Shown: positions 1 through 16,563 of the stretch, in pieces
Numbering within the stretch: position 1 is the stretch's first letter
Layout of the letters: each line of letters begins with the position of its first letter
From: a virus
Lineage: Duplodnaviria > Heunggongvirae > Uroviricota > Caudoviricetes
Virus record (IMG/VR): IMGVR_UViG_648276669_000001
Reading direction: 5' to 3' (one strand)
DNA: 28,353 nt
Translations under genes and position numbers: made by a program
Notes under the pieces: model-generated
Seen by the model: only the letters and a program-made list of their open reading frames with translations
The model's database searches: none
Told to the model about the DNA's origin: nothing

Positions 1-299
1 CAAAGTAACCCGGGGCCGATTGCCATTTTGGTATGCGGCCAAAGTTGTTTAATCGCGTGCCCTAACAGGTGCGCACAGGAGTGACGAATGATCTCCAGAC
101 CTTCTTCGTCTTTGGCGGTAATGATCGACAGTTGTGCGTCGTTTTCAATCAGATCGCAAGCATCAACCAGTTCACCATTAACGCGCCCTGCAATACAGGC
201 TTTCGCCAGACCTGGACCAATGTCCAGCGCAACATCCATGGGGCTTACAGCGTGGTCGTAATGGCGTTGGCTGCCATCAGGAAGAGTTATAACAGGCAT
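1..299 (-). CDS. thrS: Threonyl-tRNA synthetase, N-terminal part (gene continues beyond window start)
   Basis: Minus-strand translation from ATG at 299 reads [96 protein letters not shown], recognised from memory as the ThrRS N-terminal domain; AAGGA RBS about 9 nt upstream. The last few codons at the window edge differ from what I recall for E. coli. Confidence 0.85.
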
Positions 300-470
300 T
301 TTATATCCTTATTTGCAGTGGTGACCCACACGAAAGATCACATACAAAGAGAAAACTTGTTTATTTACAGTTGATTACGATACCATCTAGCCAACAATCG
401 CTAAATTGGTACACAATCTGGTACACAGATGAAAAACTGACACAGCAAGTTTTTCATCCATTAAAATCAT
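300..470 (-). promoter_or_regulatory. Probable thrS 5' leader/operator region (translational autoregulation site in E. coli)
   Basis: Position immediately upstream of the thrS start; E. coli thrS is known to have a roughly 160 nt structured leader bound by ThrRS. Sequence not matched base by base from memory. Confidence 0.35.
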
Positions 471-545
471 GGTAACACCAAAAAAGTAGTGATTGCACCA
501 TTCTATTTGACAGTGTCCAAAATTGCCTTACTTCGATGAGGCATG

Positions 546-595
546 CCCCCCCATCTGGTATGTTTTAGTTGATATTGTGATTATACTGCCCCCCC
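546..595. repeat. Two homopolymeric C7 tracts (546-552 and 589-595) flanking a TATACT -10-like hexamer (582-587), upstream of the acetyltransferase ORF
   Basis: Seen directly: gcatgCCCCCCCatctgg and tatactgCCCCCCCaatcat. Confidence 0.9.
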
Positions 596-647
596 AATCA
601 TCCGTGTTGCATTACCTCGCCAGATAATGTAAATTTGAAATTTTCAT

Positions 648-1382
648 TTGCATTTTTTACTTATTGATAATATGAAAATTAGAAAAGTTGTTTTAACAAA
701 AGCAGAGAAGTATTCTGATGAAATGGGTAATGAGATCCAGTACGAAGGTAGTTGTGACGTCAAACTAATTCAGTTTAGAGGATCTAATAATAAACTTATC
801 ATTCATAAAGATGCATCATTAAAATATTTTGAGATATATTTTGACTGCAACAATGGGTATTTTGAAATTGGCCCATGCCATATCGCAAACAAAGGTATAC
901 AAGCCCATATAAGAGTGGGTGAGAATTCCTCCATAAAAATAGGCTCTGATTTCACTTGCACTGGTAAAGGTATGATTTCTGCTGTAGAAAACTCAAGCAT
1001 AATTATTGGCGATGACTGCATGTTTTCAAGTGGAAATGAAGTTAAAACTGATGACTCCCACCCTATTTTTAGTGTAGTAACAGGTGAACGTATAAATATG
1101 CCAAAATCTATTTATATTGGAAGTCATGTCTGGGTTGGCCGCCGAGCGGCAATACTTGGTGGTGCAGAAATCGAAAGTGGTAGTGTTATTGGCTATGCAG
1201 CTGTTGTTAAAGGACACGTCCCAAATAACTCTATTGCAGCAGGAGTTCCAGCAAGAGTAATAAAAAAAGACATTGCCTGGGAAAGACCTCATCTCTCCAT
1301 ACATAAACCTTATGTAAAGCCTAATAAGGACTCCATAAAAACCACAAGTGAATATTGGAACCTAACAAAAGAAAAACAATAA
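648..1382 (+). CDS. Hexapeptide-repeat (left-handed beta-helix) acyl/acetyltransferase, AT-rich cargo gene; alternative start at ATG 672
   Basis: Translation shows repeated [LIV]-G-x-x-x-x hexapeptide motifs (IGSHVWVGRRAAILGGAEIESGSVIGYAAVVKGHVPNNSIAAGVPARVI) typical of LacA/NeuO/WbbJ-type O-acetyltransferases; base composition markedly AT-rich relative to the phage structural genes. Confidence 0.8.
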   Translation: MHFLLIDNMKIRKVVLTKAEKYSDEMGNEIQYEGSCDVKLIQFRGSNNKLIIHKDASLKYFEIYFDCNNGYFEIGPCHIANKGIQAHIRVGENSSIKIGSDFTCTGKGMISAVENSSIIIGDDCMFSSGNEVKTDDSHPIFSVVTGERINMPKSIYIGSHVWVGRRAAILGGAEIESGSVIGYAAVVKGHVPNNSIAAGVPARVIKKDIAWERPHLSIHKPYVKPNKDSIKTTSEYWNLTKEKQ

Positions 1383-1419
1383 AAACACACCATATATTGA
1401 ACGACAAGTAAATCACATG

Positions 1420-1452
1420 TCACTCCTAGAATGCGATATCTTTAAGGAGTGA
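1420..1452. terminator. Inverted repeat (tcactcct / aggagtga, 8 bp stem, 17 nt loop) between convergent acetyltransferase and tailspike genes; possible bidirectional terminator
   Basis: Seen in sequence; flanking T-runs are weak. Confidence 0.3.
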
Positions 1453-1537
1453 CATTTATCTATAACAAATTACTAAAACACCCAAAAAACATAGACTTCA
1501 ATTGGTAATATTGAGACTTAAGGTGTCAGTAAAATAG

Positions 1538-4279
1538 TTAATTTGCAAGCTTATTTTCCAGTTCTTCAATCCTCTTTATAATATTTTTCTGACGTATACC
1601 TAATGCAGCAATCATTAGATACTGTAATTCATCATTTCTGAATGCATAGCGTTCTCCTGCTTCATGCGTAATAGTTATAGCCTCACGAACAAGGTTACCT
1701 TCATCATCATAAACAGCTGGATCTGTATCTGTATATGCATCCCATCTGTCATAGCAGATCGCTCCGTATTTAAATGGATCAAGTCCATTCTCTCTGAATA
1801 TTTCCATTGCCCGTTGCACCGTAAGTCCGGCATGAAGTCTGGCATCAGCTCCCTTATTTTTTACACTATCAAGCCATTGATAAAAACCAATTTCATCAAC
1901 AAGAGCTAACCCAACCGCCTGCTCTTTATCGGAAAGAGTTCTGACTTCCGTTTTCTCTGTTGCATCAGATGTATTTATAGTTGCAGTCCCTGCGTAGACC
2001 TGAGAAAAGCGGTTAACGGACCTTCCAAGTGATACCTGGTTATCAGTTGTTGGCCTTAATGTCGTCGTCGCCCATGTCGATGTAGTATCTTTAGTCGCAG
2101 AAAATACTGTTACATTCCCCTGCTTAAGTCTGACGACACCTCCATCTGTAGAGGCAAGTATCAACTCACCAGCCGCAGATGGACAATCAGCAGCATGGAT
2201 ATCAATATAAGCACCACCCGCAGTATTCCCATCTTTAGAACGGAACTGCATACCTCGAAAGTTTGAGTCGAATACTGCTTTCGTACTTACCCATGAATTA
2301 TTGTCATGTCCGTAATCTGTATCAAACAGGTTAAGGTTATTTCCATAATTCAACTCGAGGGATTTGGTATACTCTCCAATGGCTTCGTCAAATATCGCAA
2401 TAGTAAATGAACCGTGCTCACGGTTAAAGGCGATATCAGTTCCAGCATAATATTGATGCGCGGTTCCGGTATACGGATCGGATTCTGCACCATGCACTGG
2501 ATGGTTGCCAAGAATATCAGACAGGTTTGCTATTCCAAACAGATGCTTATTTCTGCGAGTATAATCACCTGATTTATATGTTGCGCCTGAATCCCATTCA
2601 CCACTTGTCGCTGCAAGCGATGTTTTTAACCAATAAGACCTGTTTGTCGGAAGATTTCCCTTGTTATCACCAGTAACAATACTTACCCAATTTTTACCAC
2701 GATGGCTTACAACATCCCCTGCGCTTTTCCATACATCCATAGCACCACAGACAAGTTCATCACCTCTTATTGCCAGCCCTTCAGGCTCAAAGCTAACCGG
2801 AACTCCGATTTTAGAGTCAGAACCATTTAACTGAGTCTCTGTATAAAGTGATGCGGCAAGTGATACAGGAAATGAACGTATTAGCGTACCACCCATATCA
2901 TAAATCTGTACTGTCCTTACGCATCTTGCAGGAACGCCACCCCAAATTGTGTAAATATATCTGCTATCTGATGTAATACCCTGAAGTGTTGCACCATACT
3001 GACCTTTACCACGGACAAGTGGAACAGGACCATTAATCGGTCTAACTTTCATTGGGTTAGAAGAAGATTCCACTTCTTTGCGATCATATACGTATAAAAA
3101 GCGGCCAGTCCCAGCGTTTGATGTCGCAATTAATATGACATATCGCCCATCATTAGATACACAAATACTTGCCCGCTGCGCAAGGTTAATCAGATTATTA
3201 TCACCCGGCTCACCAAATACTCGGTAATGAGTTATATCTTCAGCAGATGTTGATGCCCCTTTCCATTTTGTCTTTGAATACCCCTTCCCTCCTAGAGAGG
3301 AACCAGTCTCAGCAATTGTTGTTGTAAACAGATATAGTTCACCGTTCTCTATTGTGGCAGAAAGATCTGAACCGTGACCAAGAGGCAATGGCTCTGTAAA
3401 TGTCACAACATAAAGAGTTGAACCATCGCTTGTATAGTGCCACTCACTGATCCTTGTGAGGGTGTCCGTTCCCCAGTTAGAACCTCCAACCTGTTGAGTG
3501 ATAAAAACCTTCTCAATACCTTCATGCCTTACACAAGCTATTCCCTGCAATGCATTTTGTGCATTCGCATATATAGTTGGCGCATTGATATCATCACCAA
3601 AATTCAGGGTCGCAAGTTTTCTTTGTCCAATGGAGAAACTTTGCATCGGCGGATTAACAGAAATGCGAACACCATTACTGATTAGAACACCATCACCGGA
3701 GAAGCGTGAAATATCTATTTTCGATGCATCAACTATAAACTCACCAGAAGGCACATGAACCAAACCACTATTTCCTGCGCTAGATGCGGCGTCAAGAAAA
3801 GCCTGTGTTGAATCTCTATTCGCAGAGTCATCCGCCCCCCACCCGCGAACGTCTTTATCATCCCGCCATCGTGCAATCTGTAATTCAGGGTATTTTTTAG
3901 CACCATCAGGATCTTCTAATTGCTGCCGTAACTGATCCGGGTCATACTTCAGCACATTCGGAAAATAGAACTGCTGCGTACCATAAGCATCGTACACAGC
4001 CATAGAGTGTCCTTTCACAGTAACGAATTTGGCAATCTGTCCGTTATATACAGGATATCCAGCAGCATTGATAACGATTGGTTGCGAAACAGGAACGTGA
4101 GAACCTTCTTCATTCTCTACATAAACCTGAATCTGGTTTTCAGGATTTACAGGGTCAGTGTCAATTTTACCGATATAAATTTTGCCATTAGCTACGGCTT
4201 TAAAAGAACGAGCCATAGTGAAGAGTTGCGAAGGCATCCCAATTACAACATTTGGAGTTATATCAGGCATATTAGTCAT
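1538..4279 (-). CDS. Tailspike protein: P22 gp9-type N-terminal head-binding domain fused to a non-P22 receptor-binding/enzymatic domain and a C-terminal intramolecular-chaperone-like domain
   Basis: Residues [62 protein letters not shown]...[31 protein letters not shown] match the P22 tailspike head-binding domain from memory. The rest is unrelated to the P22 endorhamnosidase; the C-terminus ([36 protein letters not shown]...) resembles the autoproteolytic chaperone domain of endosialidase/tail-fibre proteins. Start set at the internal ATG (4279) because the 48-codon upstream extension is AT-rich and has no counterpart in P22 gp9. Confidence 0.85.
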
Positions 4280-4604
4280 CCTGTTTGAAAATTTAGATAT
4301 TGAAGAAAACGGAATGACTGCAGACAAAGATGCAATTGTTTTGAAAAATAATCTTCTATTCACTTTAAAACTATGCAACATGAACAAAACAATTATTTTA
4401 CAACAAACAAGAATCTTGATCAACAGACATATGCTTTATGCGTTTAATGCGTCATTTAAAAATAACAAGTACTACTTTTATTCCTATCGTCCATGATTTT
4501 CATTTTCAAATATTATTAAATAACAATTCCTATTTATAATATCTGTCATTTAATTTGCTCCAGATACAAGGAATCGCCGCAGCATGGCTACGGTGAATTT
4601 TGGG

Positions 4605-4631
4605 CATAAAAAACCCAGCCGAAGCTGGGTC
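4605..4631 (-). terminator. Rho-independent terminator downstream of ant (hairpin ACCCAGC-TTCG-GCTGGGT followed by a T-run on the minus strand)
   Basis: Seen in sequence: aaaaaacccagccgaagctgggt on the plus strand. Confidence 0.7.
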
Positions 4632-4648
4632 GTTGCGTTGGTTATCTG

Positions 4649-5551
4649 TCAGTAGTTATGTACTGAAGGAGGCAATTCTTTATTCTTAAGTCTCATCCAT
4701 GCGGAAAGATTCGTTGGTCCGTCTGGCTCATTGATATCAACATCTCGTGTGTGATTGATTAAAACGTCTCTCGCCATTCCGATAACATACGAGAATTCAT
4801 GACCGTAGTCGTAGCATCTGCCGGAATAGTTCGATTGAATTTGTTTTAGCGCCGGATACAGTTCGCGGAATAATGCCTGTGAACGGTTGGCATAATCCCA
4901 TAACCATACAAGGCTGTTTGCTTCTTTTGCAGAAAGCTCGTTTGCTTTCTTCTCTTGTTTGCCAATAAACTCGCCTTCAAGCACTACCCTGTGGATGTAC
5001 TCTACTGCTTGCGGTATCTGAGATGCATCAAGCTCTTCAATACTTTCCACGTTGAAACGCTGATGAATCATTGCATAAGCTTCTGGGTACATTAGATGCT
5101 TTTTGCTGACTAGCATATTTACAGCATCACGAAGCGGAGTCCTGTCATCAACAGATGTTTTCTTACGTGCATTTTCTTCCTTTCCCTTCGTCCAGTAGTC
5201 ATGCAGCACGCTAAAGCATTCCTCCTGGTACTGAATCAGTTTATCACGGATGTCAGCACGAACTTTCTCAGGGTTGATGCTGAACAGCCATCCATTTAAC
5301 TTCTTCAAAGGAAGGCAGAGTAGCTTACGAAGCTTCCCATCAGCGGCAACCATGTTCATATGAACACAGTTGAATTTGCTAATCTGCTTCATGAGTTTTG
5401 TTTGCTGCGTTGACCAGCTCATTCCAAGGTTTTCAACGATTGGCTTCATCGCAACATATGCAACTCCGGCAGCCATGGCGGTGATAATTTGCTGACCGTT
5501 GAATGGTACGTAAGAGGTGTTCACTGCTTCTAAAATTGCTATACTATTCAT
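4649..5551 (-). CDS. ant: Antirepressor Ant (P22 immI)
   Basis: Translation from ATG 5551 ([21 protein letters not shown]...) recognised as P22-type antirepressor; GGAG RBS about 10 nt upstream; lies directly downstream of arc as in P22. Confidence 0.9.
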
Positions 5552-5620
5552 GTTGGTTTTTCTCCACGGATTTACTGACAACCGAAGCCCTGACTGTTCC
5601 CGCAGTTGGGGCTTCAACTT
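5552..5620 (+). ncRNA. sar: Candidate sar antisense RNA (about 68 nt, antisense to the arc-ant intercistronic region and ant RBS)
   Basis: P22 is known to make a 68-69 nt antisense RNA here. Sequence shows a plus-strand promoter-like pair TGTTCA(5517-5522)-17 bp-TATACT(5540-5545) and a hairpin GAAGCCC...GGGGCTTC near 5580-5615. Confidence 0.45.
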
Positions 5621-5781
5621 TACGCGCCAATGCGCCCTTCCTTCTTAAAGCTTTCCATTACTCTCTGATAAATCTCAGAGTTAACAGACCGACCATTCTC
5701 TTCCGCCACCTTGCGGACCAAATCCAATACTTCTTTAGGCCACCGCAAATTGAACTGCGGCATCTTGCTCATTCCTTTCAT
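5620..5781 (-). CDS. arc: Arc repressor (53 aa, ribbon-helix-helix)
   Basis: Translation [53 protein letters not shown] is essentially the P22 Arc sequence as I recall it. Confidence 0.95.
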
Positions 5782-5794
5782 ATTCACCTCACAA

Positions 5795-5816
5795 TATAGG
5801 TCCACCGTGGACCTAT
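5795..5816. promoter_or_regulatory. Mnt operator (Omnt), palindrome TATAGGTCCACCGTGGACCTAT, within the Pant region
   Basis: Perfect palindrome seen in sequence; matches the known P22 Mnt operator. Confidence 0.8.
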
Positions 5817-5823
5817 TGAGAAT

Positions 5824-5844
5824 ATAGTAGAGTGCTTCTATCAT
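5824..5844. promoter_or_regulatory. Arc operator (Oarc), ATAGTAGAGTGCTTCTATCAT, between Pant and Pmnt
   Basis: Matches the known 21 bp P22 arc operator (ATGATAGAAGCACTCTACTAT on the other strand). Confidence 0.8.
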
Positions 5845-5871
5845 GTCAATACACTAACTTGGAGTGATGGC

Positions 5872-6144
5872 ATGGCTAGAGATGATCCGCACTTTAACTT
5901 CCGTATGCCTATGGAAGTAAGGGAGAAATTAAAATTCAGGGCGGAGGCGAATGGGAGATCAATGAACTCCGAGTTGTTACAAATCGTCCAAGATGCTCTA
6001 TCAAAACCATCGCCTGTGACTGGATATCGCGACGATGCAGAACGACTCGCTGATGAGCAGTCAGAGCTTGTTAAGAAGATGGTGTTTGATACGCTGAAGG
6101 ATTTGTACAAAAAAACCCACCTGAAGGTGGGTCCTATTTATTAG
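5872..6144 (+). CDS. mnt: Mnt repressor (maintenance of lysogeny), with a C-terminal tail that differs from the P22 ending I recall
   Basis: Translation MARDDPHFNFRMPMEVREKLKFRAEANGRSMNSELLQIVQDALSKPSPVTGYRDDAERLADEQSELVKKMVFDTLKDLYKK... matches P22 Mnt from memory; GGAG RBS at 5861-5864. Confidence 0.95.
   Translation: MARDDPHFNFRMPMEVREKLKFRAEANGRSMNSELLQIVQDALSKPSPVTGYRDDAERLADEQSELVKKMVFDTLKDLYKKTHLKVGPIY
6108..6133 (-). terminator. Rho-independent terminator for the minus-strand lipoprotein gene (hairpin ACCCACC-TGAA-GGTGGGT plus T-run); overlaps the 3' coding end of mnt
   Basis: Seen in sequence: aaaaaacccacctgaaggtgggt. Confidence 0.6.
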
Positions 6145-6560
6145 TCTTGCTTTGTTGATGGTATAAGAGATGCGTTTGCCTCTTTTGGCTTCAAGGTATA
6201 CATCCCACCATTAAAAGGATCTACAGCAAGCCAACCAATTAACCCACCAAACACAAGGTTTCCACCAATATACCAGCCATTAGCATTGGCTTTGATTGGC
6301 AGGGTAACTGGTTCGTACCCATCCTTTTCCATAGTGATCTGGTAGCTCTTTTTGCCAAAATAACTACCATCTGACTTGGCAAGAGTTACTCCTTGTGGGG
6401 TCTTACCTTGCGCAACAATCACGCCTGATTCGTCTTTTACCTTAAAGCTCGCACCGGAAGGATTGCTGTTCACTTGCACAAGCTGCGTTTCGTCACCAAC
6501 AATAGTTGCGCACCCAGATAACAATATAGCGCCAGCAACGACGCCAATAATCCTCTTCAT
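6141..6560 (-). CDS. Putative lipoprotein (signal peptide with lipobox LLSGC); moron in the sieA-equivalent position
   Basis: Translation from ATG 6560: MKRIIGVVAGAILLSGCATIVGDETQ...; Gly-rich C-terminal motif GGNLVFGGLIGWLAVDPFNGG. No homolog confidently recognised. Confidence 0.7.
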   Translation of the reverse strand: MKRIIGVVAGAILLSGCATIVGDETQLVQVNSNPSGASFKVKDESGVIVAQGKTPQGVTLAKSDGSYFGKKSYQITMEKDGYEPVTLPIKANANGWYIGGNLVFGGLIGWLAVDPFNGGMYTLKPKEANASLIPSTKQD

Positions 6561-6676
6561 ATCAATTTCCATATTTAAAAAACCGGAAACATCCTAATGA
6601 CAAACCATTCAAATGTGAAGTAGGCAAAAGATGTTTACTTTTTCATGGTATCCTGCTCAAAACTAAGGAGGTTGGC

Positions 6677-7066
6677 GTGAAGCAATTTCTTACTGCTATG
6701 TTCTTATTCATATCTTTTGGGGCTACAGCAGAGTGCTGGGTCGTTGGAGATATGCGCGGAATAAGCTATTCAGAACGAAATAATTTCCACCCGGAAGAAG
6801 ATGGTTTTAGTGGAACATTCATCATTAAGACAAACGGTGAAGATGCCAGCATCACATATTCTGGGACAGATGCGGGCGGCATGGCTTACAAAGCATTGTC
6901 TAAAAACTCCATCATAGGAATCGGCGCGAATGGCGAAACTCAACGCGTTATCGACTCATGGGTAATACATCCTACTGGAACAGTTTTAATGTCAAAAACC
7001 ATTTCCGGTTATGGAAATATGGATTCAACCAAAGCTTTTGTTGGAAAAGTAAAAAGAAAATGTTAG
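6677..7066 (+). CDS. Small exported protein of unknown function (N-terminal signal peptide, GTG start)
   Basis: Strong RBS AAGGAGG 6 nt upstream of GTG; N-terminus MKQFLTAMFLFISFGATAEC looks like a Sec signal peptide; divergent from the lipoprotein gene. Confidence 0.65.
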   Translation: MKQFLTAMFLFISFGATAECWVVGDMRGISYSERNNFHPEEDGFSGTFIIKTNGEDASITYSGTDAGGMAYKALSKNSIIGIGANGETQRVIDSWVIHPTGTVLMSKTISGYGNMDSTKAFVGKVKRKC

Positions 7067-7090
7067 CGATTGAATCCAATTTCCCATACG

Positions 7091-8917
7091 TTACTGCTGT
7101 GTTGCCTCAGTAGCAAACAGCGGTCTGATGGCATTCGCAGCGTTATTTATCGCTCTTTCATAGGCTGGTGTTCCTGCTTTGGTGTTTGCCAAACGAAGAA
7201 GCATATTTCTTGCTGCTTTGGACTCATACAAGCGCATCATTGCACCAAAACCAGCCTCAAGCCCCATTGATACGCCAAGGGTCGCAGTTGCGCCAATCGT
7301 CCTTATCCTGTTGGCTTGCGATTGCCCCGTCTGAGTTACTACATTTGCGGTGTCTGACCTTGCTGTTTGCTGTAGAACTTCATGAAGAGCATCAAGCTCT
7401 TTCATGTGCTTTCCAGAAAAAATAGTGTTGTAAATTTCACCGCCTGACTGAGATTTCAGCTTATTAACTTCAGTGATGAACTTGGCTGGAGAGTCCCCGG
7501 CCTTTTCCGCTATTTTGCTGACGTAAGCTGCACGCATAGCATCTTTCCCCTTATCATCCAGTGCGCTCCAGATTCGTTTCACGTCAGATGGTTTTCTGCT
7601 TAATACAACGGTATTTATAAGTTCAGGACTGGCTTCGCTGCTTGCCTTGTTGAGCTTGTTGGCAATGTTTTTATTAAGCACCTTATTATAAACGTTTGCA
7701 TAATCGGAATTTGCTTTAAGGTATTTTGCTGCGTCTGATGCACCGAGGTTTTTAGCAACTGCGTTACGAAGGTCTTTTGACATTGCATTCTCTACCATAT
7801 TGGTAGCTGCTTTTGCCTGGTTGGGGAAGACCATAGCATCTCCCTGAACATTAGATCTAAATGCTGTTCTGTGCTGACGCAAGAGATCAAACGTAACATC
7901 CAAATCAGTTGCAGGGTTTGCTAATTCTTCACGTAGGTTACGCAAGGATGTAAGCAGGCTTTGATTGGCAGACGTCCCAAGCCGTTCCTGTCTTGCGATC
8001 GCTGTATTCAGAGCATTCATGGTATTTGTGGTATCAACTGCGGCATTACCCATTTTATTGGTGACGTCATTGATAACAGCGCCAGCGGCATCCTTCCGCC
8101 CCCTTAACGTGGTGGTAAGAGATTTCACCACATCATCAGGGTTGTACTCACCAAAACGGTCAAAATAATTGCTTACCAGCTTACTACGCGTTGCATATTG
8201 CTCCGCTCGCTTTGAGCCTGTCCCGAGCAAAGCCCCCTCAGCATCCTGAGTAAGTCCGCGAGTGAAAGCATTTTTCGGCGGGATAACATCAGATGTCATT
8301 GGTGTCACGCCCATCGATTCTGATGTGGCAATTTTCTTCGCCACTTCTGGCGCAATATCACCTTTTATAGCCGTTATTCCACGCCCTATTCCCTTTGCTG
8401 CTGCGGAAAGAACACCCTGAGCGGCAAGGTTAACTCCGGCATTTTTAGCTGCATTTTGTGCGAAATCACCTTTCTGATTTGCGGCCTCTGCCAGTGATCC
8501 AATAGCCATACTTCCTGCCGTTCCAACTCCTGGAACTAAATACCCGCCAATTGTTTCTCCAGCTTGAGCGTAGGAGTCTGTCGGTCTGTCTACTGGACGA
8601 TAGACATCATCCAATACTTTTGGCCCACCAAGCCCCTGACTGATTGCATTAATCAGACTTGCGCCACCCTGCAATACGTCAAATGGTATGTTTACCAGAC
8701 CACGACCAGCCTGTTCTGCAATTTGCCCTGCACTTTGACCACCAGTGAGCCAGTCAGTAGCTTTTCCTACCAGAGATTGTTCTTCTGGCTGCGATTGGTT
8801 TTGGGTGGATTGATCACCAGAAGACAGCATCTGAGCAATGCGACGTGCTCCCTCAGTATCACCAGCAGCATCAGCATTCCTTAACGCCGTCATCAATTGT
8901 TCACGACTATAAGCCAT
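7091..8917 (-). CDS. Ejection (injection) protein, P22 gp16 homolog
   Basis: 608 aa ORF in the P22 gene 16 position and size, Ala/Gly-rich; stop overlaps the upstream gene. Confidence 0.85.
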
Positions 8918-10302
8918 TACTGCCCTCCGAGATATTTGCTAATTAATTCGTCATCGGACAATTGCTGTTGAGGTTGGCTATCGCCATAACTTGAGGAAAG
9001 AAAACGTTTTGCCGCAGAGTTCAATGATTCACCCTTCTTAACATCCATCCCCATGATGTTTCGGTTGCGATCAGATTGTCCAGGGCTGCCGTTTGCACTC
9101 ATCCACTCTGACCTAAACTCGTTGAACTTCGCGTTATTACTTTCCATTTTTGCCATACCCCTTAACCATCGAGCCATGACCATTGGATTATCCGTTTCGC
9201 TTGGAATGCCTTTCCTTGCAAACTCAATATCCTTATCTGATGCAGGGCCGGGAGGTAGAAGCTTGGTTGCCTGCGCATTGGCTAGTTGGTTGAATCTAAT
9301 CCGCATATCTCGGAGGTAGTTATCTTGCCCCGTAAGCTTAGAGAACATATTTTCAGCGTTACCGAACAAACCAGGAGTTGGCTTCTCCTTCTCCAGCGTG
9401 TCAGCGAGCGTTGTCATTGAATCGGCAGCATTACGACTAGCTGCCGCATCACCTGCTGATTTTTCTATAGCCTTTTCCATGTTCACGGATAGTTTTGGCG
9501 CAGCATTAATAAGTTCATCGGCCTTCTTTTGTGCCTGTTGTACTTCAAAACCGAATTTCTGCTTATCAAGTGCCAGTCTTTCTGCTGCAAGTCCGTGTCC
9601 AGTCATTGCTGACTGATAGGAAAGGTTTTGCCCTCTCGCCTGAAGTGCCTCGCCAGCCTGATTGCTGCGGATTGTCTCTGCCAGCCTGCCTCGGTCAATT
9701 TCACGACCAGCCATCTTGTCCTGAACAGCAAACGCCTTTTCTGGCCCAAGTGCACCGAGAGACATAGTAGTCAGCATGTGTGATAGCTGCTCTGGATTCT
9801 GGATACCTGTCTGAATCATCCAGTCAGCATTAGCACCAACGCGATTTAACCTGTCCTTGTTGTCAGTAATGAATTTACTGTAGGCTTCCGGTCCCTGAGA
9901 AAGAGCGACGTTAGCCCTCATGGCTAAATCGCCCATATCGTTGCGTTGCTGCTCATTAAGACCAGAAAACGCCTGTTGTGCCTGTGCAACAAACGCTGGA
10001 TTTTCCTGGGCAAACTTAAATAGTCCCGATGGATCACCAGAAGCCCATGCATCAGCATGAACCTTATTGAACGCACTAATCGCTTTCTGTTGCTGTTCCT
10101 GATTGTAAATATCAGCAACTCCAGCCAGGCCACGTAACGCGGTCAGGCCAACGTTATTTGCACCTGAGCGAGCCAGTTCATTGTTTTCGCGGATCAGACC
10201 AAGCGTTGCGTTAATGTCGCTTGCCTTTGGCGCATTCTCATTTTGCGTACCGATGCCAGCCAGAAAACCACCAGAATTAATACCCTGTTGCCACGTAGCC
10301 AT
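8917..10302 (-). CDS. Ejection protein, P22 gp20 homolog
   Basis: 461 aa ORF in the gene 20 position; gene order 14-7-20-16 conserved. Confidence 0.85.
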
Positions 10303-10312
10303 TGATTACCCC

Positions 10313-11008
10313 TTAATAAAGCAGTGAACCAAGCAGACCGATACCAGCACCGATACCAGCACCCCACGGAGTTGATGAACCAATTAATTTCGCAAGTCCA
10401 GCCCCAGCAATGGCACCAGACGCACCTCCACCAATAGCAGATTGCAATGCTGACGGTCGGTTGGCGTTTGCCGCAGCCAGCGCCGCGCTTTGCTGTGAAA
10501 TCTGACTCATGTTGTTGGCATATGTTTGCCCGGCATTTGCCTGACCCTGAAGCGCGCCAAGACCAATATTTGCCAGATTCTGGTAGTTGTTCATCTGACC
10601 AGACAGCCACTGCTGACCAAGCGTTGGTGCGATTGTTGCTAACTGATTACTGGTTGCGGTGGAACCCAATCCACCTGTTGCTTCCGCTGCCGCCAGACTC
10701 TGATAGCGCGCCTGACCAGCAAAGTCTTTGTACTGCTGAGAGTTGTAATACTGGTTAAGCGCCTGACCTTGCCCCTCCAGAGACGATAAGTTCTCGAGGC
10801 TGCCGACATACTTCTCAGCCAGAGGAGTAAACGGTTTCAGGTTGTTCATGATGGTGTTGAACTGCTGATTTTGCAGGTCTGCGGCATACTTCTGAGCTTC
10901 TGCTGCATACTTTGCGCTTTTATCAGAGCTGCCACCTTTCCCGCCTTTTTCAGGGCAATAAGGTTCCTCGCCGCGCAGTTTTCTGCCCAGCTTAAATGCA
11001 TATAACAT
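10313..11008 (-). CDS. Ejection protein, P22 gp7 homolog
   Basis: 231 aa; N-terminus MLYAFKLGRKLRGEEPYCPEKGGKGGS resembles P22 gp7; Gly/Ala/Gln-rich C-terminus. Confidence 0.8.
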   Translation of the reverse strand: MLYAFKLGRKLRGEEPYCPEKGGKGGSSDKSAKYAAEAQKYAADLQNQQFNTIMNNLKPFTPLAEKYVGSLENLSSLEGQGQALNQYYNSQQYKDFAGQARYQSLAAAEATGGLGSTATSNQLATIAPTLGQQWLSGQMNNYQNLANIGLGALQGQANAGQTYANNMSQISQQSAALAAANANRPSALQSAIGGGASGAIAGAGLAKLIGSSTPWGAGIGAGIGLLGSLLY

Positions 11009-11010
11009 GG

Positions 11011-11466
11011 CTATCTCCCGTTATTCAGGAAGTCGATTAGTTCTTCACGTGTGGCGCTGTAAAACGTCACGTCATCCACGCCTTTGAAGTATTTCTTGAT
11101 AGTTCCTACACGCTTAAGGCCAATCATTGCGCAGTACATCTGCCCGTGGCGGAATTTGCGCGCAGCGAACGATGTGACGCACTGAACGGTGGTGTTAGTC
11201 AGAATGTATCGCCAGAACGCCAGACCGATTTCCTTGCTGAAGCCGCGAACCTCTGGCAGGTACATGGCGTGGCAATCGAATGTCAGCGGCTGAATCTCCT
11301 GATAGTAAACAATGCCGCCAAACTGACCGTGCACGTTAACCTCAAAGTAACGGCATTCAGGCTTGTAGTCGTATCCATCACCGTTGTTGCTCCCGGCGAT
11401 AATGTCGGGGTGATTTCCCACGGCTTCTATCAGGTCGATGTTTCGCGTTGGTTTGAATGTAATCAT
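11011..11466 (-). CDS. P22 gp14-position protein (head assembly/ejection accessory)
   Basis: 151 aa ORF between the tail-needle and gp7 genes as in P22; identity by synteny only. Confidence 0.7.
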   Translation of the reverse strand: MITFKPTRNIDLIEAVGNHPDIIAGSNNGDGYDYKPECRYFEVNVHGQFGGIVYYQEIQPLTFDCHAMYLPEVRGFSKEIGLAFWRYILTNTTVQCVTSFAARKFRHGQMYCAMIGLKRVGTIKKYFKGVDDVTFYSATREELIDFLNNGR

Positions 11467-12167
11467 CAGTCAATCAGCCCATGTAATCTAAGTGCTGTTT
11501 CAAGCGCCAGAATACGCTGCCGCGACTGCTGCAAACCTGTAGCGAGATCTGCGACTTCGGATTGTGCGTACGTAGTGCCGACAGTGTATGACTGGTTAGC
11601 GTTGAATGAGCCAAGAAGTGGCGTACCTGTGGCTGCAGTCCATCCGGTATTTCTTGCTCCAACAACCTGAATGCCATCAACTGAATATGATGTTTTTACA
11701 TCCAGCGGTGACGCAAGAGACTGCGATTCGGTTACGGTTTTCGATACGTAATCACTCTTAATGCCAGAGACATCGTTTTCTACGTCATCCAGTCTTTGGT
11801 CAACAGTGACCAGATGCGCCTGAATATCGATAACCTCATCCAGCAAGTAATCAACATCGCTACGCAGTACGACTATCTTCCCTTCGGCAGTTGTTAACCT
11901 GACCTCAAGTAGATTTATCGCTTTTGTGTTTGCGGTGATTCTTGCGTCGTGCTCAGCCAGTTCGACATCCTGTTCATCGTTTTTTACCTGGGCATCGTAA
12001 GCGCCCTGACCAGCCTGATTTGCCTTCCCGGCAATTGCGCCGACATCAGCCCCCTGATTAATGACATACAGCAGGTAAGACTGGCTGAATATATTGCGTG
12101 GAAGGATTGATGTATCGAGCCGCGTCGCCTGTACAATAACAGGTGTGTTGAGATTTGAATCAGCCAT
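11466..12167 (-). CDS. Tail needle protein, P22 gp26 homolog
   Basis: 233 aa; N-terminus [35 protein letters not shown] and coiled-coil middle region resemble gp26. Confidence 0.85.
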
Positions 12168-13585
12168 TACTCAATCCTTACCTGGCAACCAGACAAAGTG
12201 ATAGGTGACTTCGTGATAACGCGCAATTTGAAGCCGACATTTTTCCTGACGCGCCCTACTCGTTTCCACAAAACGCGTTTGTCGTAAACGAACGGTTCAT
12301 TCTGCTCAATCATCTGCTCACGTCCGTAATTAATGCCGTCAGTGGTTACCGATAGGAACAGTCGGTCGGCGTACTGCGCAACGCCAGTTGACGATTCAAC
12401 CTCAAGGTCAAACACCCTGGCATTATCCGCTTTGAACAGTGGAGTAAACAGCAAGTGTTCCTGTTGCTTGTCGTACTGGCTGCTGATGTCGAATTGCAAT
12501 TTCCCGGTCACGGGTTCCAGTTTATCGCCGCACGTTATCTGATTGCCTTCGTAAATGAAGTCGATAGCGCGGTACACATCGTCATACAGTCCAGTTTTCA
12601 GCACACACCATTGTGGGCCATTGGCGCTTGAAGATGCGTCGTAAACAAGAACATGGCGCGGCAGGTGGATAATCAGCAACTCATGAGCATCAAAGCGCAA
12701 CGATTCCATCACACCATCAGCCAGTTCATCAGCAGTGTAGGAGCGGAGGATTTTCTCAATGCTCGCGCTGGCGATTGGTGACACCTGACCGGATCCGATG
12801 ATGTATACAGACGGCGCACCTGTTGCCGGATTGCTGATAAACGCATAGGAATCAGCAAACGGCGTTTTGCAGTAAGTCCCGGCGATGCCTTTTTGCACCA
12901 TCAGTGATGGCTGTGCGACATACAAAGCAGCACCAACGGTGGTTGCTCCAGTAAGGGAGAAATATTCAATAGTCGATGAACCAAAGCAGACGATGAAGTC
13001 TCGCCATGTCCCGATACCGATGATGCCGTCCGGCTGCGATTCTGCGCGATATTGTGCACTGTATCGGTCAGGATGCGATTCGTCTTCAAGGTCAGTGATA
13101 AACCATGAATCAGTTCCGTCTTTTGACCACGCATAACGCCCACGTAAGCGCGTAATGTCGCGGACCGAGCCTAACTCATACTGAGTGAATCCGCTATCAG
13201 TAGGCCAGTTTGAGACGGTTTTAACCGTGCCATCATAGCGATACTCTACCAGTTGACCATTAACGCCTACCGCCTGTGATGTCCGGCCATGCGCCATTGA
13301 TACACGACCACTTCCTGAAACATCACCGACTTCACTTTCTCCTTTGTAGAGCTTGCCGCCACACACACGATAAACAGCATTCTGCGCCATGTTGTACTCG
13401 ACGCCGCGAGATACACCGTTCACATCAGAGCGTTTGGCAATGCCAGGGAATGAGCGAAGATATCCGCTGCTGTTCAGTATTTCTTTGGGTGTAGCCAACA
13501 TATTCACTGGCAGATAGTCGATATAGTCGGCATTTCGGAAGTCTTTGCCGACACCTTTCATAAGCGGAAGTTGCTGAATCGGCAT
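12167..13585 (-). CDS. Tail hub protein, P22 gp10 homolog
   Basis: 472 aa, same length and position as P22 gp10. Confidence 0.85.
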
Positions 13586-14086
13586 TTATTCGCTCCCGTT
13601 ATCGCAAGGTTCCTTCCGGTGGAAGTAATTCCAACCGTTCCACTTCGCCAACTGATTACCACTACCAACAGGCATAAGGTTTGGATAACCGGACTTACAT
13701 TTAGCGGCTTTTGCTCTGTCCATTGCAGACAGTTTGACGAGTCGCTCTTTCCCGTATCTGGCAGTGGTTATAAGTTTTGCAGGCGCTTCCAGCGCATAAT
13801 CCGGTGCAATGCGGCAGGCAAGGTTGAAAATGACAGCATTGATAGCGTTATTTGATAAACCGTGCTCATCGCCCGGATCTGGAGCGACATCTGCATCAGC
13901 GAAAATGTAGCCAACGTTGATACCAGGTGACACATCACCGCCAAGCCATTCAGCCATCATCATTTCAAGGTCATTGACGCCGTCTTCCATGGACTGCGGT
14001 TCGACATCAGTTAACGTGGCATTTGATGCCACACCGAGCTTACGTAATGCCGCAAGAACTAAATCACCCTTCGTTGTCAGGTTCAT
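13586..14086 (-). CDS. Tail adaptor protein, P22 gp4 homolog
   Basis: Translation from the internal ATG ([48 protein letters not shown]...) matches P22 gp4 from memory. The longer ORF-track start (14173) overlaps another frame and is rejected. Confidence 0.85.
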
Positions 14087-14312
14087 CTGCTGCCGCCTTA
14101 GGTTTTCGACCAGGCTTTTTACGCTGTTTTTCTTCTGGCTCTGGCTTTGGATCTGGCTCTGGATCTGCAACATCCTTCAAAAGGTCATCAGGATGTGAAA
14201 ACCAACCAGCATCCAGATATTCCTGAAGCTCTTCGGCTTTCACGATTTCAAAGTCGTATCCAACGCCTTTCCACTTCTTCATGTCGCCATGACGAAAGAT
14301 CATGTGTGTCAT
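14064..14312 (-). CDS. Small hypothetical protein between the coat and gp4 genes, with an acidic Pro-rich C-terminal tail ([22 protein letters not shown])
   Basis: Open frame with GGAG RBS before the internal ATG ([16 protein letters not shown]...); a similarly placed extra gene exists in Sf6-type relatives as far as I recall. The GTG at the ORF-track start lies inside a terminator hairpin and is unlikely to be used. Confidence 0.45.
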
Positions 14313-14325
14313 GCTTGTCTCCAGA

Positions 14326-14350
14326 TAAAAAAGGGAGCCGAAGCTCCCTC
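14326..14350 (-). terminator. Hairpin plus T-run immediately downstream of the coat gene (GGGAGC-TTCG-GCTCCC then TTTTTT on the minus strand)
   Basis: Seen in sequence. Confidence 0.6.
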
Positions 14351-14356
14351 TGGTTA

Positions 14357-15652
14357 TCACGCGGTCTGGTTAGGAAGACCAACACCAATTGCCTCTGGTC
14401 GTACAGCACATGCTGAATACCACACAGCAATACGGCACTTACCAGACAGAGTGTTGATATCACCCTGCGTTGCGAAGATGCCGTTAACACCAATACCAGG
14501 AATGCTGAAGGAAGACGTTTTCATGCCAGCAAACAGTTCATGGGTTACCGGGATCGGCTGAGACAGCAGACGGATTGAGTCATCAGCCCAGAACACATTA
14601 GCGGTGGTTGTTGCCACGTTCAGAACGTTTACCGGAGTGGTATCAGCAAGAGAGGTGTTTACGTTAGCGTAAGCCTTCTCTTCTTTTGTCAGTGACGCGT
14701 CATCCAGTGCAATCGGTTTCGGCGTGATTTCGATGTGAGTACCATCGATCACACGGGTGATTGAGAAAGTCGCATCATCAGTTAGCACGTTCTTCGCCAT
14801 CTGAGACAGGAATTTCACACCAGTGAAACTGATTTTGTCGCCGCGCTTAAATCCGGTGGTGGAGGATACGGTCACCGTTGCAACACGGTTGTCGACGTTC
14901 TCTTTGTTACCATCGGTATCAAGGGTGTATGCCTGCGGCTTAAACTTCTGCGCACCAGAAACAGTTACACCAGTAGCGGTTGACTTGGTAACTGCCGGAA
15001 GTTTCGGTGAGCGAAGAATTTCATCAAAGCCAGCAATCTGACGCTGAATAGTACCGTTGCGATACGCTTCTTCAGGAACGCGACCGAAGATGTCACCATC
15101 TACCAGGTTGCGGCCTGCTTTGCGGTAATCGTCAGGGTTCAGGAAGTAACTGATGCCCATGTCGCGGTTGAGTTCGCGGGAGAACATCAGGCGCTCTGCA
15201 TCAGACACAAAATCCCAGCCAGACAGGCCAGTAGATGGACCAATTGCGCGGGTATCGTGAACAACAAGTGAGCCCATTTCAGTTGCCTGTTTGGCAATTG
15301 CTGACTCAATGTTATTCGCCAGTTTTTTAGCGGATGCCTGGATGCGGCGACGGTAAGAACGCTCATCACGCAGGTCATCTGCACGAAGCTCGAAGAAATC
15401 GTTATCCGGATCGCCCATGTTGCATTTCACGGAGAGTTCCAGAATCCCAGTTGCGTTGCCAGTTAAATCCCAGCCAGTCTGGGTTGGCGCTTCCTGCTCA
15501 ACAGGCATCCACACGGTGTTGCTTGAACGCTGCATGGATTCTGCCGGAGGGGTGTATTTTGTCACTTTGGACGCCATTGGCGTCAGATTCTGGACGGTTT
15601 CGATGATTTCATCCAGAGCATACGTGACCAGTTGACCTTCATTTAATGCCAT
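14357..15652 (-). CDS. Major coat protein, P22 gp5 homolog
   Basis: 431 aa; [21 protein letters not shown]... and C-terminus ...[14 protein letters not shown] closely match P22 coat protein as I recall it. Confidence 0.95.
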
Positions 15653-16563
15653 TATCGAATTCCTTTATTCAGTTGCGCCTTGAGCTTGCGGTACGTCTCT
15701 ACATCCCCTTTGTTTGCTGCCGCTTCCATCTGCTTTTCAATCGCAGAGATATTTGCAGCAACAGCGTGTCCCTGAATTGGTTCATCAGGTAACGGGGCTT
15801 CTGAAACAGGCTTGGCTCGAGGCTTGAGAGTTAAACGTTCTGACAGTCGAGTGAGTTCAATCAGCGCGGATTGCCCGTCCATCGCCAGCAACTGGCGTGT
15901 TTTTTCAGGATTAGCACCAAGGTGATACATGAGAGCAGCGGATTTCTCCGGGAAGAGGCGCATGATGTCGGCACCGACTGCTGGCGGCACCAGTTGCATG
16001 AATGCATCCTCTTTCTCCTGATAGTCAGGGATATTGAGCTTTTCCGCTGCGTCGTAGTGCTTACGGGCTGCCTCGACGTATTGCGCTGATTGCTGGGTGA
16101 ACTCCTGAGTTTTGCGACCCTGCTCGGCGACAGCCTGGCTTCGTGCGTCCATAGCCTTGATCTGCCATTCACTGTTTGCCTGCTGGAAGGCAGCCAGTGC
16201 GCGGCTCTGGTCATAGTCGTACTTAGCCAGTGCATCTTCGGAAAGATAATCGTTAGGGTCTGGTTGTTTTGGTAACTCAGGGTTCACCCGCAGGTGCTCC
16301 GGCAACTCTCCACGCTTAACCGCTTCCATCTGCTGCTCAAGCTCACGCTGGCGTTTGCGTTCGATGCGGCGACGGGCAAATTCAGCATTAGTTGCCGGGT
16401 CTTGTTTTGGTTTCTCATCGTCTTTCAGGACAATCTCGAAGCCTTCTTCCTGACCTGCGTTGTCGTTGGCATTATCGACAACTAAGCCATCAGCAGATGC
16501 CGCTGCATGATTGCCGGGCAGGGTTAATTCTTCAGAAGCCTGAATGTCGGTGGTTTGGTCCAT
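15652..16563 (-). CDS. Scaffolding protein, P22 gp8 homolog
   Basis: 303 aa; large stretches ([31 protein letters not shown]..., C-terminal [11 protein letters not shown]) match P22 gp8 from memory. Confidence 0.9.

Follow-up and report, generated by a model that had tools for sequence, protein, structure and literature searches.

The thrS-proximal end of a P22-like prophage

The window (the whole stretch of DNA that was analysed, 28,353 bp in length) begins inside thrS and continues into a prophage. The 5' end of thrS, which by translation encodes the N-terminus of threonyl-tRNA synthetase, occupies 1..299 on the minus strand with its ATG at 299-297, and is preceded by a proximal leader segment (300..327, minus strand) that is host-derived and identical to that of K-12; this segment contains the Shine-Dalgarno sequence UAAGGA (306-311, minus strand; sequence as in PMC3858243) and, from the fold, the 3' strand of operator hairpin 2 (321-327, minus strand). 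A match to this end of the window, extending from approximately 6/13 to 434/437, is present in all 5426 of the 5426 complete E. coli genomes. Further upstream, at 672..1382 on the plus strand, is a gene for a hexapeptide-repeat acyltransferase of 236 aa (Pfam Hexapep; RefSeq WP_001313877.1), a low-GC gene (0.36) that is carried as cargo at the int-distal end of the prophage and whose ATG is 372 bp from that of thrS. The gene and its flanking sequence are found in five of the 5426 complete genomes and are absent from the other 5421, which disposes of the possibility, raised with the original prediction, that this region is core-genome sequence. The intergenic region upstream of it (516..671) is phage DNA with no similarity to the empty site, is found only in the five cargo-bearing genomes, and contains on direct reading two TGCCCCCCCA tracts (C7) at 546-552 and 589-595.

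The acyltransferase gene is followed by that for a P22-type tailspike (1538..4270, minus strand; 910 aa from the annotated ATG) with Pfam matches to Head_binding (8e-65) and Peptidase_S74, in agreement with the annotation of MS 16-3, an E. coli strain whose complete copy of this prophage is 99.98% identical to the window. The RefSeq annotation of the MS 16-3 prophage also includes portal, scaffold, coat, gp4/gp10/gp26 and ejection proteins, a P22-type virion module that, together with the tailspike head-binding domain, identifies the element as P22-like. At the DNA level window 1383-25000 is 94.5% identical to phage IME10 and 84% identical to P22, over ~55% of the query. The integrase gene and the second junction lie outside the window, and what we say of both is drawn from the 99.98%-identical MS 16-3 prophage.

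The last thrS codons at the window edge encode GPGLL where E. coli has GPVIDNG, a difference that had been noticed earlier, with another species or allele, or else a misreading, suggested as its cause; the difference is real, but the first of these explanations does not hold. Compared with MS 16-3, window positions 1-12 contain an extra C (position 9), an extra G (position 12) and unmatched terminal bases, and three further differences between the window and MS 16-3 are likewise homopolymer-length indels. Since 13-327 is 99.0% identical to K-12 by alignment, the odd bases at 1-12 are, on these comparisons, sequence-end and homopolymer errors and not the mark of another species or allele.

The junction and the att core

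The original prediction placed the prophage directly upstream of thrS with no tRNA gene between them, left the att core open and proposed alignment with a prophage-free genome as the way to find it. Alignment with the K-12 empty site and with both ends of the MS 16-3 prophage yields both the junction and the direct repeat, and agrees with the proposed position and with a target other than a tRNA gene; ARAGORN detected neither tRNA nor tmRNA genes anywhere in the window, and the tRNA target usual for P22/Sf6-type phages is ruled out by this search. The boundary itself is not ~350 bp from thrS as first supposed; the true junction is 29-51 nt from the ATG, at window 328-350, where the window, the K-12 empty site and the MS 16-3 and TUM10008 junctions share a 23 bp core, ACACGAAAGATCACATACAAAGA. 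This core lies 29-51 nt upstream of the thrS ATG, within the thrS mRNA leader rather than a tRNA or tmRNA gene. It is identical at 23 of 23 positions in attB and both prophage junctions; K-12 has it a single time, and MS 16-3 has a copy at each junction. By extension, the attP core would also be identical to these 23 bp.

Homology to all other E. coli genomes breaks at both edges of the core. At the int-side junction the homology of the other 5425 matching E. coli genomes ends exactly at the core edge, and the far junction of MS 16-3 consists of the int-side phage arm, the same core, and then a native K-12-type leader. The thrS-side junctions of the window and MS 16-3 are identical to each other, and at this edge the identity to the host falls from 100% (328-350) to ~85%, with the match running on to 434/437. 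Measured against K-12, identity is 99% over 13-327, 100% over 328-350 and 83% over 351-439 (~85% over 351-437), then 42% over 440-470 and 66% over 471-520, and is random beyond. From 351 onwards the DNA is of phage origin. Judged by these alignments the crossover must lie within 328-350, and we infer the exact cut sites within the core; host-specific core variants do no more than suggest its left 14-16 bp as the place of crossover.

The position of the core with respect to the thrS operator is precise. The sequence 300-350 is identical to K-12 and contains operator hairpin 2 (321-341), with the loop UUCGUGU and an anticodon-like CGU; the first 7 nt of the core (328-334) are this loop, and bases 335-341 form the 5' stem strand in the fold. 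In attP the sequence to the left of the loop is only weakly symmetric with that to its right, and the 7 nt loop is no more than a candidate for the overlap region. By analogy, the thrS-leader site works like the anticodon-loop class of integration sites, of which it is not a member, because its core starts at a 7 nt anticodon-like loop.

Integrase, arm motifs and the phage-borne leader

The integrase at the far end of the MS 16-3 prophage is a tyrosine integrase of 402 aa with Pfam matches to Arm-DNA-bind_3 (2e-20) and Phage_integrase (1e-17), the match to the central domain falling below the Pfam cut-off; its gene is transcribed away from att and is convergent with the early-left operon, and a neighbouring ORF of 76 aa is a candidate excisionase. 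The phage collection contains no free phage genome with exactly this integrase, the best match being that of phage Oslo (75% identity), and the attP of this prophage was therefore reconstructed. Among the other sequenced phages, no relative of the integrase exceeds 48% identity.

In the int-distal arm TGGTACACA is repeated in tandem with a 12 bp period (407-415 and 419-427, plus strand), and these are the only two occurrences in the 28 kb window, in which 0.13 are expected; the only other pair in the MS 16-3 prophage is 29-49 bp upstream of the int start codon. Relative to the core, the pairs are fixed at -158/-146 and +73/+85 throughout the elements of E. coli, Oslo and Citrobacter, which have integrases that are 75-100% identical. 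The tandem pairs, which are far more frequent than chance would give, are candidate arm-type sites of the integrase.

Beyond the core, 351..437 (minus strand) is a phage copy of the distal thrS leader that takes in hairpin 4 and the 5' portion of linker domain 3, with ~85% identity to K-12; 12 substitutions and one inserted base separate it from the native E. coli leader. The chimeric leader folds into the same hairpin 4 (373-418, minus strand), the 5' strand of which includes the first TGGTACACA copy. Across nine leaders the hairpin 4 pairing is kept in 93% of cells, compared with 30-38% in slid controls, the loop UUGUU is invariant and there is some compensatory change in the stem, the covariation being modest, with two pairs showing double changes among nine related sequences. 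ThrRS binds hairpins 2 and 4, both of which mimic the tRNA-Thr anticodon arm (PMC11088916), and the conservation of both in the chimeric leader suggests that autoregulation by ThrRS would be retained. No thrS-leader family was found in window 1-1500 by an Rfam scan at a permissive threshold; Rfam apparently has no model of the thrS operator, so that the scan counts neither for nor against it, and the operator assignment therefore follows from identity to K-12.

The 5' end of the chimeric leader (438..468, minus strand; 42% identity) is phage-specific and non-homologous to the native sequence, and folds into a 5' hairpin. It is followed by a phage-borne, thrS-promoter-like block (469..515, minus strand) that has 66% identity to the K-12 promoter region and unrelated sequence on either side, and that includes an extended -10-like sequence TGTTACCAT (477-469, minus strand), the native K-12 counterpart of which is TGTTAACAT. 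The predicted start of the chimeric leader is near 462, ~163 nt upstream of the thrS ATG; we take the native E. coli thrS transcription start to be at -162. The block ATGGTAACACTAAAAAA is found at a fixed distance in seven genome loci with the phage leader type, including those of Citrobacter, Escherichia sp. E1V33, S. arizonae and Buttiauxella, and is also visible in the attP of phage Oslo. We infer from this similarity and position that 469..515 would act as the thrS promoter. A consensus scan of 250-760 for promoters and terminators gave nothing useful, and is uninformative since it also missed the native K-12 thrS promoter. The suggestion that insertion could alter the thrS promoter or leader is borne out, not as a mere disruption but with everything upstream of -51 replaced by a phage homologue that keeps the hairpins; as the alignments read, most of the 350 bp interval between thrS and the acyltransferase gene consists of phage DNA made in the likeness of the leader and promoter of thrS.

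Related elements and interpretation

The int/att module extends well beyond this prophage, and is present in 73 of the 5426 complete E. coli genomes (~1.3%). Salmonella phage Oslo and prophages of Citrobacter also have it, and a remnant of it surrounds the wzy locus of Salmonella, which is excisable; a search of sequenced phages with the junction DNA matched phage Oslo alone. A motif scan of representative genomes located, in Citrobacter and Escherichia sp., int-side arms adjoining integrase homologues, as well as leader-side arms that lie ~107 bp upstream of thrS; the two are 44.6 kb apart in C. meridianamericanus. Empty and occupied Citrobacter sites are both present in metagenomes. In Citrobacter the native sequence past the core is entirely different, and the lysogens carry the phage-type leader. 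Another version of that leader is found in a lambda-like lysogen, E. coli 266917_2. For the annotation of genomes, the thrS leader is a prophage hot spot outside the tRNA genes, situated between thrS and espL1/arpB in E. coli and between thrS and yniD in Citrobacter. In the literature searched, only the papers on Salmonella wzy and Vibrio Aux3 were found to treat thrS as such a site, and Reeves et al. (2013) make no mention of it.

Phage vB_SosS_Oslo (NC_018279) resembles the E. coli prophage in its integrase (75% identical) and in the contiguous layout of its attP, which has tandem TGGTAC(A/G)CA pairs at -158/-146 and +73/+85, the core, and a leader-like and promoter-like arm, beside the integrase gene. 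Its core differs at two positions (ATACGCAAG...), and unlike the E. coli prophage it is a siphovirus with unrelated virion genes and umuDC as neighbouring cargo; no description of its integration site was found in the literature searched. In Salmonella Typhimurium the wzy locus is bounded by 113 bp attL/attR repeats between nucA and thrS, and deletion of the thrS-side repeat (attR) causes a growth defect that the authors blamed on the thrS promoter (PMC12074656). It shares with the E. coli prophage a site in the thrS leader and a repeat of ~110 bp, and its circular junction (PMC12074656 supplement) has the same core (CTTTGTATGTGATCTTGCG, in the thrS sense), this type of leader, the promoter sequence TGTTACCAT and, in degenerate form, the int-side arm of phage Oslo. 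Together with the contiguous attP of phage Oslo, this circular junction is indirect support for the view that attP and attB would be regenerated by the recombination. Unlike the prophage, it is a 2.6 kb island without an integrase, its cargo is the O-antigen polymerase and not a whole phage, and its repeats are identical to each other. That study left the mechanism of excision open, and drew no connection between the repeats and either the thrS operator or a family of phage integrases (PMC12074656).

Comparison with better known systems sets the thrS site apart. P22 integrates in thrW, Sf6 in argW, and phage 21 and e14 in icd, in each case with replacement of the displaced part. As in these, an identity block extends from the crossover to the end of the displaced segment, the target stays functional, and the crossover is in or beside an anticodon-type hairpin loop with stem arms on either side. 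Here, however, a protein gene is targeted at its 5' regulatory leader, rather than a tRNA gene or a 3' end. The block runs upstream, and the replacement, to which a promoter and an RNA operator belong, is ~85% identical to the native sequence in E. coli and unrelated to it in Citrobacter. The integrase is like those of the P4 type in its N-terminal Arm-DNA-bind_3 domain, in the transcription of int away from att, and in the location of arm repeats between the core and the int start, although the target is the thrS leader whereas that of P4 is a tRNA-Leu gene. In Vibrio cholerae the Aux3 T6SS module and its 40 kb prophage-like form lie between gcvT and thrS (PMC7721734), and resemble the E. coli prophage, as described, in bearing an integrase and in having att repeats in an intergenic region beside thrS, albeit in a different genus.

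We consider it highly probable that window 1-650 is the attR of a ~40 kb P22-like prophage whose tyrosine integrase recombines inside the thrS 5' leader. The crossover would take place within the core at 328-350, -29 to -51 from the ATG, at the anticodon-like loop of hairpin 2, with an arm-binding integrase using the tandem TGGTACACA pairs in both arms. Integration would separate thrS from its native distal leader and promoter, and the phage arm would supply a substitute, with linker domain 3 and hairpin 4 in homologous form, a 5' hairpin that is new, and a promoter-like block as far away as in the native leader. In the lysogen thrS would be read from phage DNA through a chimeric leader with both ThrRS-binding hairpins; because the phage would bring the rest of the leader and the promoter, thrS would remain intact on phage-supplied control sequences. 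The 5' strand of hairpin 4 may have a double role, as DNA in integrase binding and as RNA in pairing, because the TGGTACACA pair is written into it.

That 351-437 is instead an ordinary host leader allele, or a recombined one, with the true prophage end near 438-520, might be argued from its still being ~85% identical to the native leader with the same fold, and from homology in other genomes that runs to 434-437. We find this scarcely credible, given that MS 16-3 has the K-12-type version at the other prophage end, directly past the same core, and that the variant is confined to lysogens (five of 5426 genomes for this version, with the other version in the lambda-like lysogen); no prophage-free E. 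coli among the 5426 genomes has it beside thrS. The same arm type also occurs in the free phage Oslo genome, and Citrobacter lysogens carry the phage-type leader despite their entirely different native sequence. The Citrobacter elements bear equally on the possibility that the prophage entered without integrase action at the core, through homologous recombination over the ~110 bp that the leaders have in common or through some secondary or illegitimate event, since host and phage there share only the 23 bp core and yet integration is at the same place. The homology is long enough for RecA-dependent exchange, and homologous recombination was weighed for the 113 bp Salmonella repeats (PMC12074656), but host sequence gives way to phage sequence right after 350 in each of three independent lysogens of E. 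coli (MS 16-3, TUM10008 and the lambda-like 266917_2), and paired arm motifs and an arm-binding integrase always lie alongside, making such an entry very unlikely.

Integrase-mediated recombination in the leader leaves the question of whom the phage-borne sequences serve. thrS is essential, and its leader is a textbook example of self-repression by a synthetase that acts on its own mRNA through tRNA mimicry; what emerges here is a temperate phage family, with its remnants, that recombines within this operator and puts a promoter and distal operator of its own in place. It could be supposed that the leader and promoter are mainly for phage use, to drive or regulate the divergently placed int gene across attP or to provide arm sites, with thrS expression as a by-product: the promoter-like block is directed in attP towards int, by way of the core and the int-side arm, and the TGGTACACA-bearing 5' strand of hairpin 4 is nearly invariant in phage copies, while its partner strand varies. 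The changes in the partner strand nevertheless keep the pairing, and the anticodon-like loop is invariant, indicative of selection on an RNA operator; expression of thrS from phage DNA is moreover required in every lysogen. While the phage and thrS roles are not mutually exclusive, a primarily phage role seems to us improbable.

A wider reading, in which an integrase family targets the anticodon-mimic hairpin of the thrS operator in the way that others target true anticodon loops, each of its elements brings a portable thrS promoter-operator cassette, lysogeny rewires thrS, and the wzy locus is excised in trans, is one that we put forward only tentatively. Were it true, control of thrS would be rewired mildly in E. 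coli, with its ~85% identical leader, and completely in Citrobacter, where the native leader is unrelated; int would be what the native thrS promoter, once displaced, faces. The reversible Salmonella wzy excision would owe its missing enzyme to the same family, acting in trans from a phage that is either resident or infecting, and the present analysis offers a concrete candidate enzyme and att anatomy for that unexplained event. The natural operator variants should be usable for measuring their effect on ThrRS autoregulation, and hairpin 4 illustrates how one piece of DNA would be under two constraints, those of an arm site for the integrase and those of a strand in a regulatory RNA hairpin.

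The native leader beside yniD in Citrobacter, Atlantibacter and Escherichia sp. E1V33 differs from the E. coli/Salmonella type, and for this reason we have considered that the E. coli/Salmonella type of distal leader might itself be the fossil of an ancient element. No trace of a yniD-type leader was found in K-12, and the native flanks of Erwinia and Tatumella resemble a diverged E. coli-type leader.

The attachment site and its prophage

Alignment of the window with the empty site of E. coli K-12 and with both prophage ends from two strains, E. coli MS 16-3 and TUM10008 (whose copy is degraded), locates the junction and direct repeat for which the original prediction had looked to a prophage-free genome, with the att core at 328-350. 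At the thrS-side junction the host sequence runs through 350 and differs thereafter, and at the int-side junction phage sequence is followed by ACACGAAAGATCACATACAAAGA and then by K-12 sequence. These 23 bp are the sole block identical in all four aligned sequences, and strand exchange must therefore fall within them. Identity to K-12 is 99.0 % over 13-327, 100 % in the core, 83 % over 351-439 (about 85 % over 351-437, with 12 substitutions and one inserted G), 42 % over 440-470, 66 % over 471-520 and random beyond 520; the att site thus comprises the core and an imperfect direct repeat of ~87 bp. Two genome searches independently confirm the core and junction edges: every one of 5426 complete E. 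coli genomes shares the window sequence between ~6/13 and 434/437, with just seven extending further, and at the int-side junction all other E. coli genomes match just to the core edge, and the window just to ~437.

Window 13-28353 is 99.98 % identical to a complete, P22-like prophage of ~40 kb in MS 16-3 (NZ_CP146667.1). This prophage is bordered by thrS on one side and by an espL/arpB-type pseudogene on the other, and a tyrosine integrase is encoded at its far end; its virion module most resembles that of phage IME10 (94.5 %), with 84 % identity to that of P22. The prediction that the tailspike/acyltransferase end lies close to the thrS start, with no tRNA gene between, agrees with our gene calls: translation identifies the first 99 codons of ThrS on the minus strand (1-299, ATG at 299-297), followed by a 236 aa hexapeptide-repeat acyltransferase (672-1382, plus strand) and a 910 aa tailspike with a P22 head-binding domain (1538-4270, minus strand), and an ARAGORN search of the window gave neither tRNA nor tmRNA genes. 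Two copies of TGCCCCCCCA (544-553 and 587-596), 43 bp apart and containing C7 tracts (546-552 and 589-595), lie upstream of the acyltransferase start at 672 and are unchanged in MS 16-3; such homopolymer runs, placed in front of a surface-modification gene, could support slipped-strand phase variation.

The odd last thrS codons (GPGLL in place of the E. coli GPVIDNG), for which a different species or allele, or a misreading, had been suggested, are a sequencing or assembly-end artefact. Positions 1-12 are matched in no E. coli genome and differ from MS 16-3 by an additional C (position 9), an additional G (position 12) and unmatched end bases; the remainder of the thrS fragment has 99.0 % identity to K-12. 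Five other differences from MS 16-3 occur in 28 kb, three of them homopolymer-length indels. The differences at 1-12, 4608, 6109 and 6639 are nearly all of this type (C, G, A and T runs), which suggests that the underlying assembly has homopolymer errors and that ORFs close to such runs may show false frameshifts.

A thrS leader carried by the phage

The core occupies -29 to -51 relative to the thrS ATG. The folded leader agrees with the known architecture of the thrS translational operator (PMC11088916; PMC3858243), with a Shine-Dalgarno sequence UAAGGA (306-311), hairpin II (321-341) with a 7 nt loop UUCGUGU in which CGU mimics the anticodon, a linker rich in U, and hairpin IV (373-418). The loop of hairpin II (328-334) coincides exactly with core nucleotides 1-7, and the following 7 nt form the 5' strand of its stem. 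The crossover is predicted to lie within this anticodon-mimic hairpin, in the 5' leader of a synthetase gene that is essential. All DNA upstream of -51 in the lysogen is of phage origin; this takes in hairpin IV and the 5' portion of the linker as well as the leader 5' end and the promoter. We take the native transcription start to be at -162, which fits an extended -10-like TGTTAACAT in the K-12 sequence.

The suggestion that insertion could alter the thrS promoter or leader therefore holds as far as replacement is concerned, although what is supplied resembles the native region: the phage arm is a homologue of the region that it displaces. Hairpin IV has the same fold in both; over nine native and phage-borne leaders its pairing is kept in 93 % of cells, as against 30-38 % in slid controls, with two pairs changed on both sides and an invariant loop, UUGUU. 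A third phage-type leader variant, from a lambda-like prophage, likewise retains the stem. Further upstream, 30 bases unrelated to the native sequence form a new 5' hairpin, and next in the arm is a promoter-like block TGTTACCAT (477-469; predicted start near 462), found at a fixed distance at seven genome loci with the same leader type and also in the attP of Salmonella phage Oslo. We infer that the arm has promoter activity and that autoregulation is retained. Indirect support comes from the essentiality of thrS, since all lysogens rely on the phage-supplied DNA, and from the small colonies seen in Salmonella when the equivalent repeat was replaced (PMC12074656). The phage would bring a putative replacement promoter together with a distal operator.

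At the int-side junction of MS 16-3 (extract 6240-6610) integration leaves the native thrS promoter and distal leader, now cut off from thrS, facing int through the core and int-side arm. Transcription of int runs away from att and converges with that of the early-left genes. In the free phage it would be the promoter-like block of the phage that faces int from this position.

Integrase, candidate arm sites and mode of entry

The MS 16-3 integrase has an Arm-DNA-bind_3 domain, a weak central-domain match and a catalytic domain. The motif TGGTACACA occurs four times in 49 kb (0.2 expected), as two tandem pairs with 12 bp spacing, one in the thrS-side arm (407-427) and one 29-49 bp ahead of the int start codon. 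Their distances to the core (-158/-146 and +73/+85) are equal in the E. coli prophage and Oslo, and that of the int-side pair is also equal in Citrobacter, Atlantibacter and Sodalis elements, making them strong candidates for arm-type sites. One copy is the 5' strand of hairpin IV. This strand is near-invariant among phage-borne copies while its partner varies with pairing kept, the pattern that a joint DNA and RNA constraint would give. An arm-like motif TTGGTACGCAATTTGGTACACA is present in other contexts in E. coli SCPM-O-B-8794 (extract 5453-5474) and Enterobacter sp. MGH 24 (6041-6062), with no detectable homologue of the MS 16-3 integrase nearby in either.

The long repeat might be taken to mean that the prophage entered by homologous recombination, but the sites in Citrobacter, Atlantibacter and Escherichia sp. 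E1V33 argue against this. The host sequence following the core there is unrelated to the E. coli leader, with yniD next, and only the 23 bp core is common to host and phage. Metagenomic data include ten contigs in which thrS, core and Citrobacter-type leader are contiguous (empty sites) and eight in which thrS is replaced by the phage int-side arm. Integration at such sites exchanges a different structured leader for the E. coli-type leader of the phage, which also shows that the phage cassette genuinely replaces the local sequence and does not copy it. The mechanism is ordinary integrase-mediated lysogeny; it is the target and consequence that are unusual.

In the Citrobacter-type distal leader the hairpin UUUCGC-AGAGUGAA-GCGGGA is conserved and a long-range helix shows compensatory changes. 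Either leader type may be ancestral; the E. coli one, which adjoins espL1/arpB, might have arisen through a mobile element. One Citrobacter-like metagenome contig (extract 1400-1480) carries a differing left arm (…CTTACAAAGATGCACACGTAA) on the same core and native leader, which suggests a second, unrelated element using this core.

Distribution and related elements

The int-side arm and integrase are present in 73 of the 5426 E. coli genomes, chromosomal in all cases, and the acyltransferase and arm version of the window in only five. In strain 266917_2 (NZ_CP026723.1, 570500-620300) this site is occupied by a lambda-like siphovirus prophage with an identical integrase protein (WP_001196928.1); the int/att module is a mosaic unit common to podovirus and siphovirus lambdoids. 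This prophage carries iss, and its thrS-side cargo is a P-loop NTPase gene. In the genome of Oslo, which comes from an isolated virion, attP is contiguous, has the same design and lies beside an integrase 75 % identical to that of MS 16-3. Scanning species-representative genomes for the arm motif revealed int-side arms adjoining integrase homologues (50-90 % identity) in Citrobacter, Atlantibacter, Sodalis, Yersinia, Erwinia, Tatumella and Escherichia sp., and, in Citrobacter, Escherichia sp. and Buttiauxella, thrS-side arms placed ~107 bp upstream of thrS; the Salmonella arizonae arm is probably similarly placed, with thrS past the locus end. The distance between the two arms is 44.6 kb in C. 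meridianamericanus but 4.7 kb in C. braakii, the shorter spacing indicating an element remnant.

Our literature search, conducted mostly outside subscription journals, found no papers on P22-like or other E. coli prophages at the thrS site, or tying this site to the thrS operator. The Aux3 module of V. cholerae also adjoins thrS (PMC7721734). In S. Typhimurium the wzy (O-antigen polymerase) locus, located between nucA and thrS and bounded by 113 bp repeats, excises reversibly (PMC12074656). Its circular junction (supplement to PMC12074656), compared with Oslo (extract 3330-3800), has the same core, a similar leader and promoter, and a degenerate Oslo int-side arm. The island therefore looks like what remains, without an integrase, of an element from this thrS-leader family, and an integrase from the family, acting in trans, is suggested as a candidate for the excision enzyme.

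In TUM10008 (extract 3027-15772) a 13 kb decayed remnant of the E. coli prophage retains the thrS-side junction, acyltransferase and tailspike, but lacks the early region, with its immunity, replication, nin and lysis genes, and most of the genes for the virion; its integrase is split by IS1A. Here the phage-supplied thrS leader has outlasted the dead phage.
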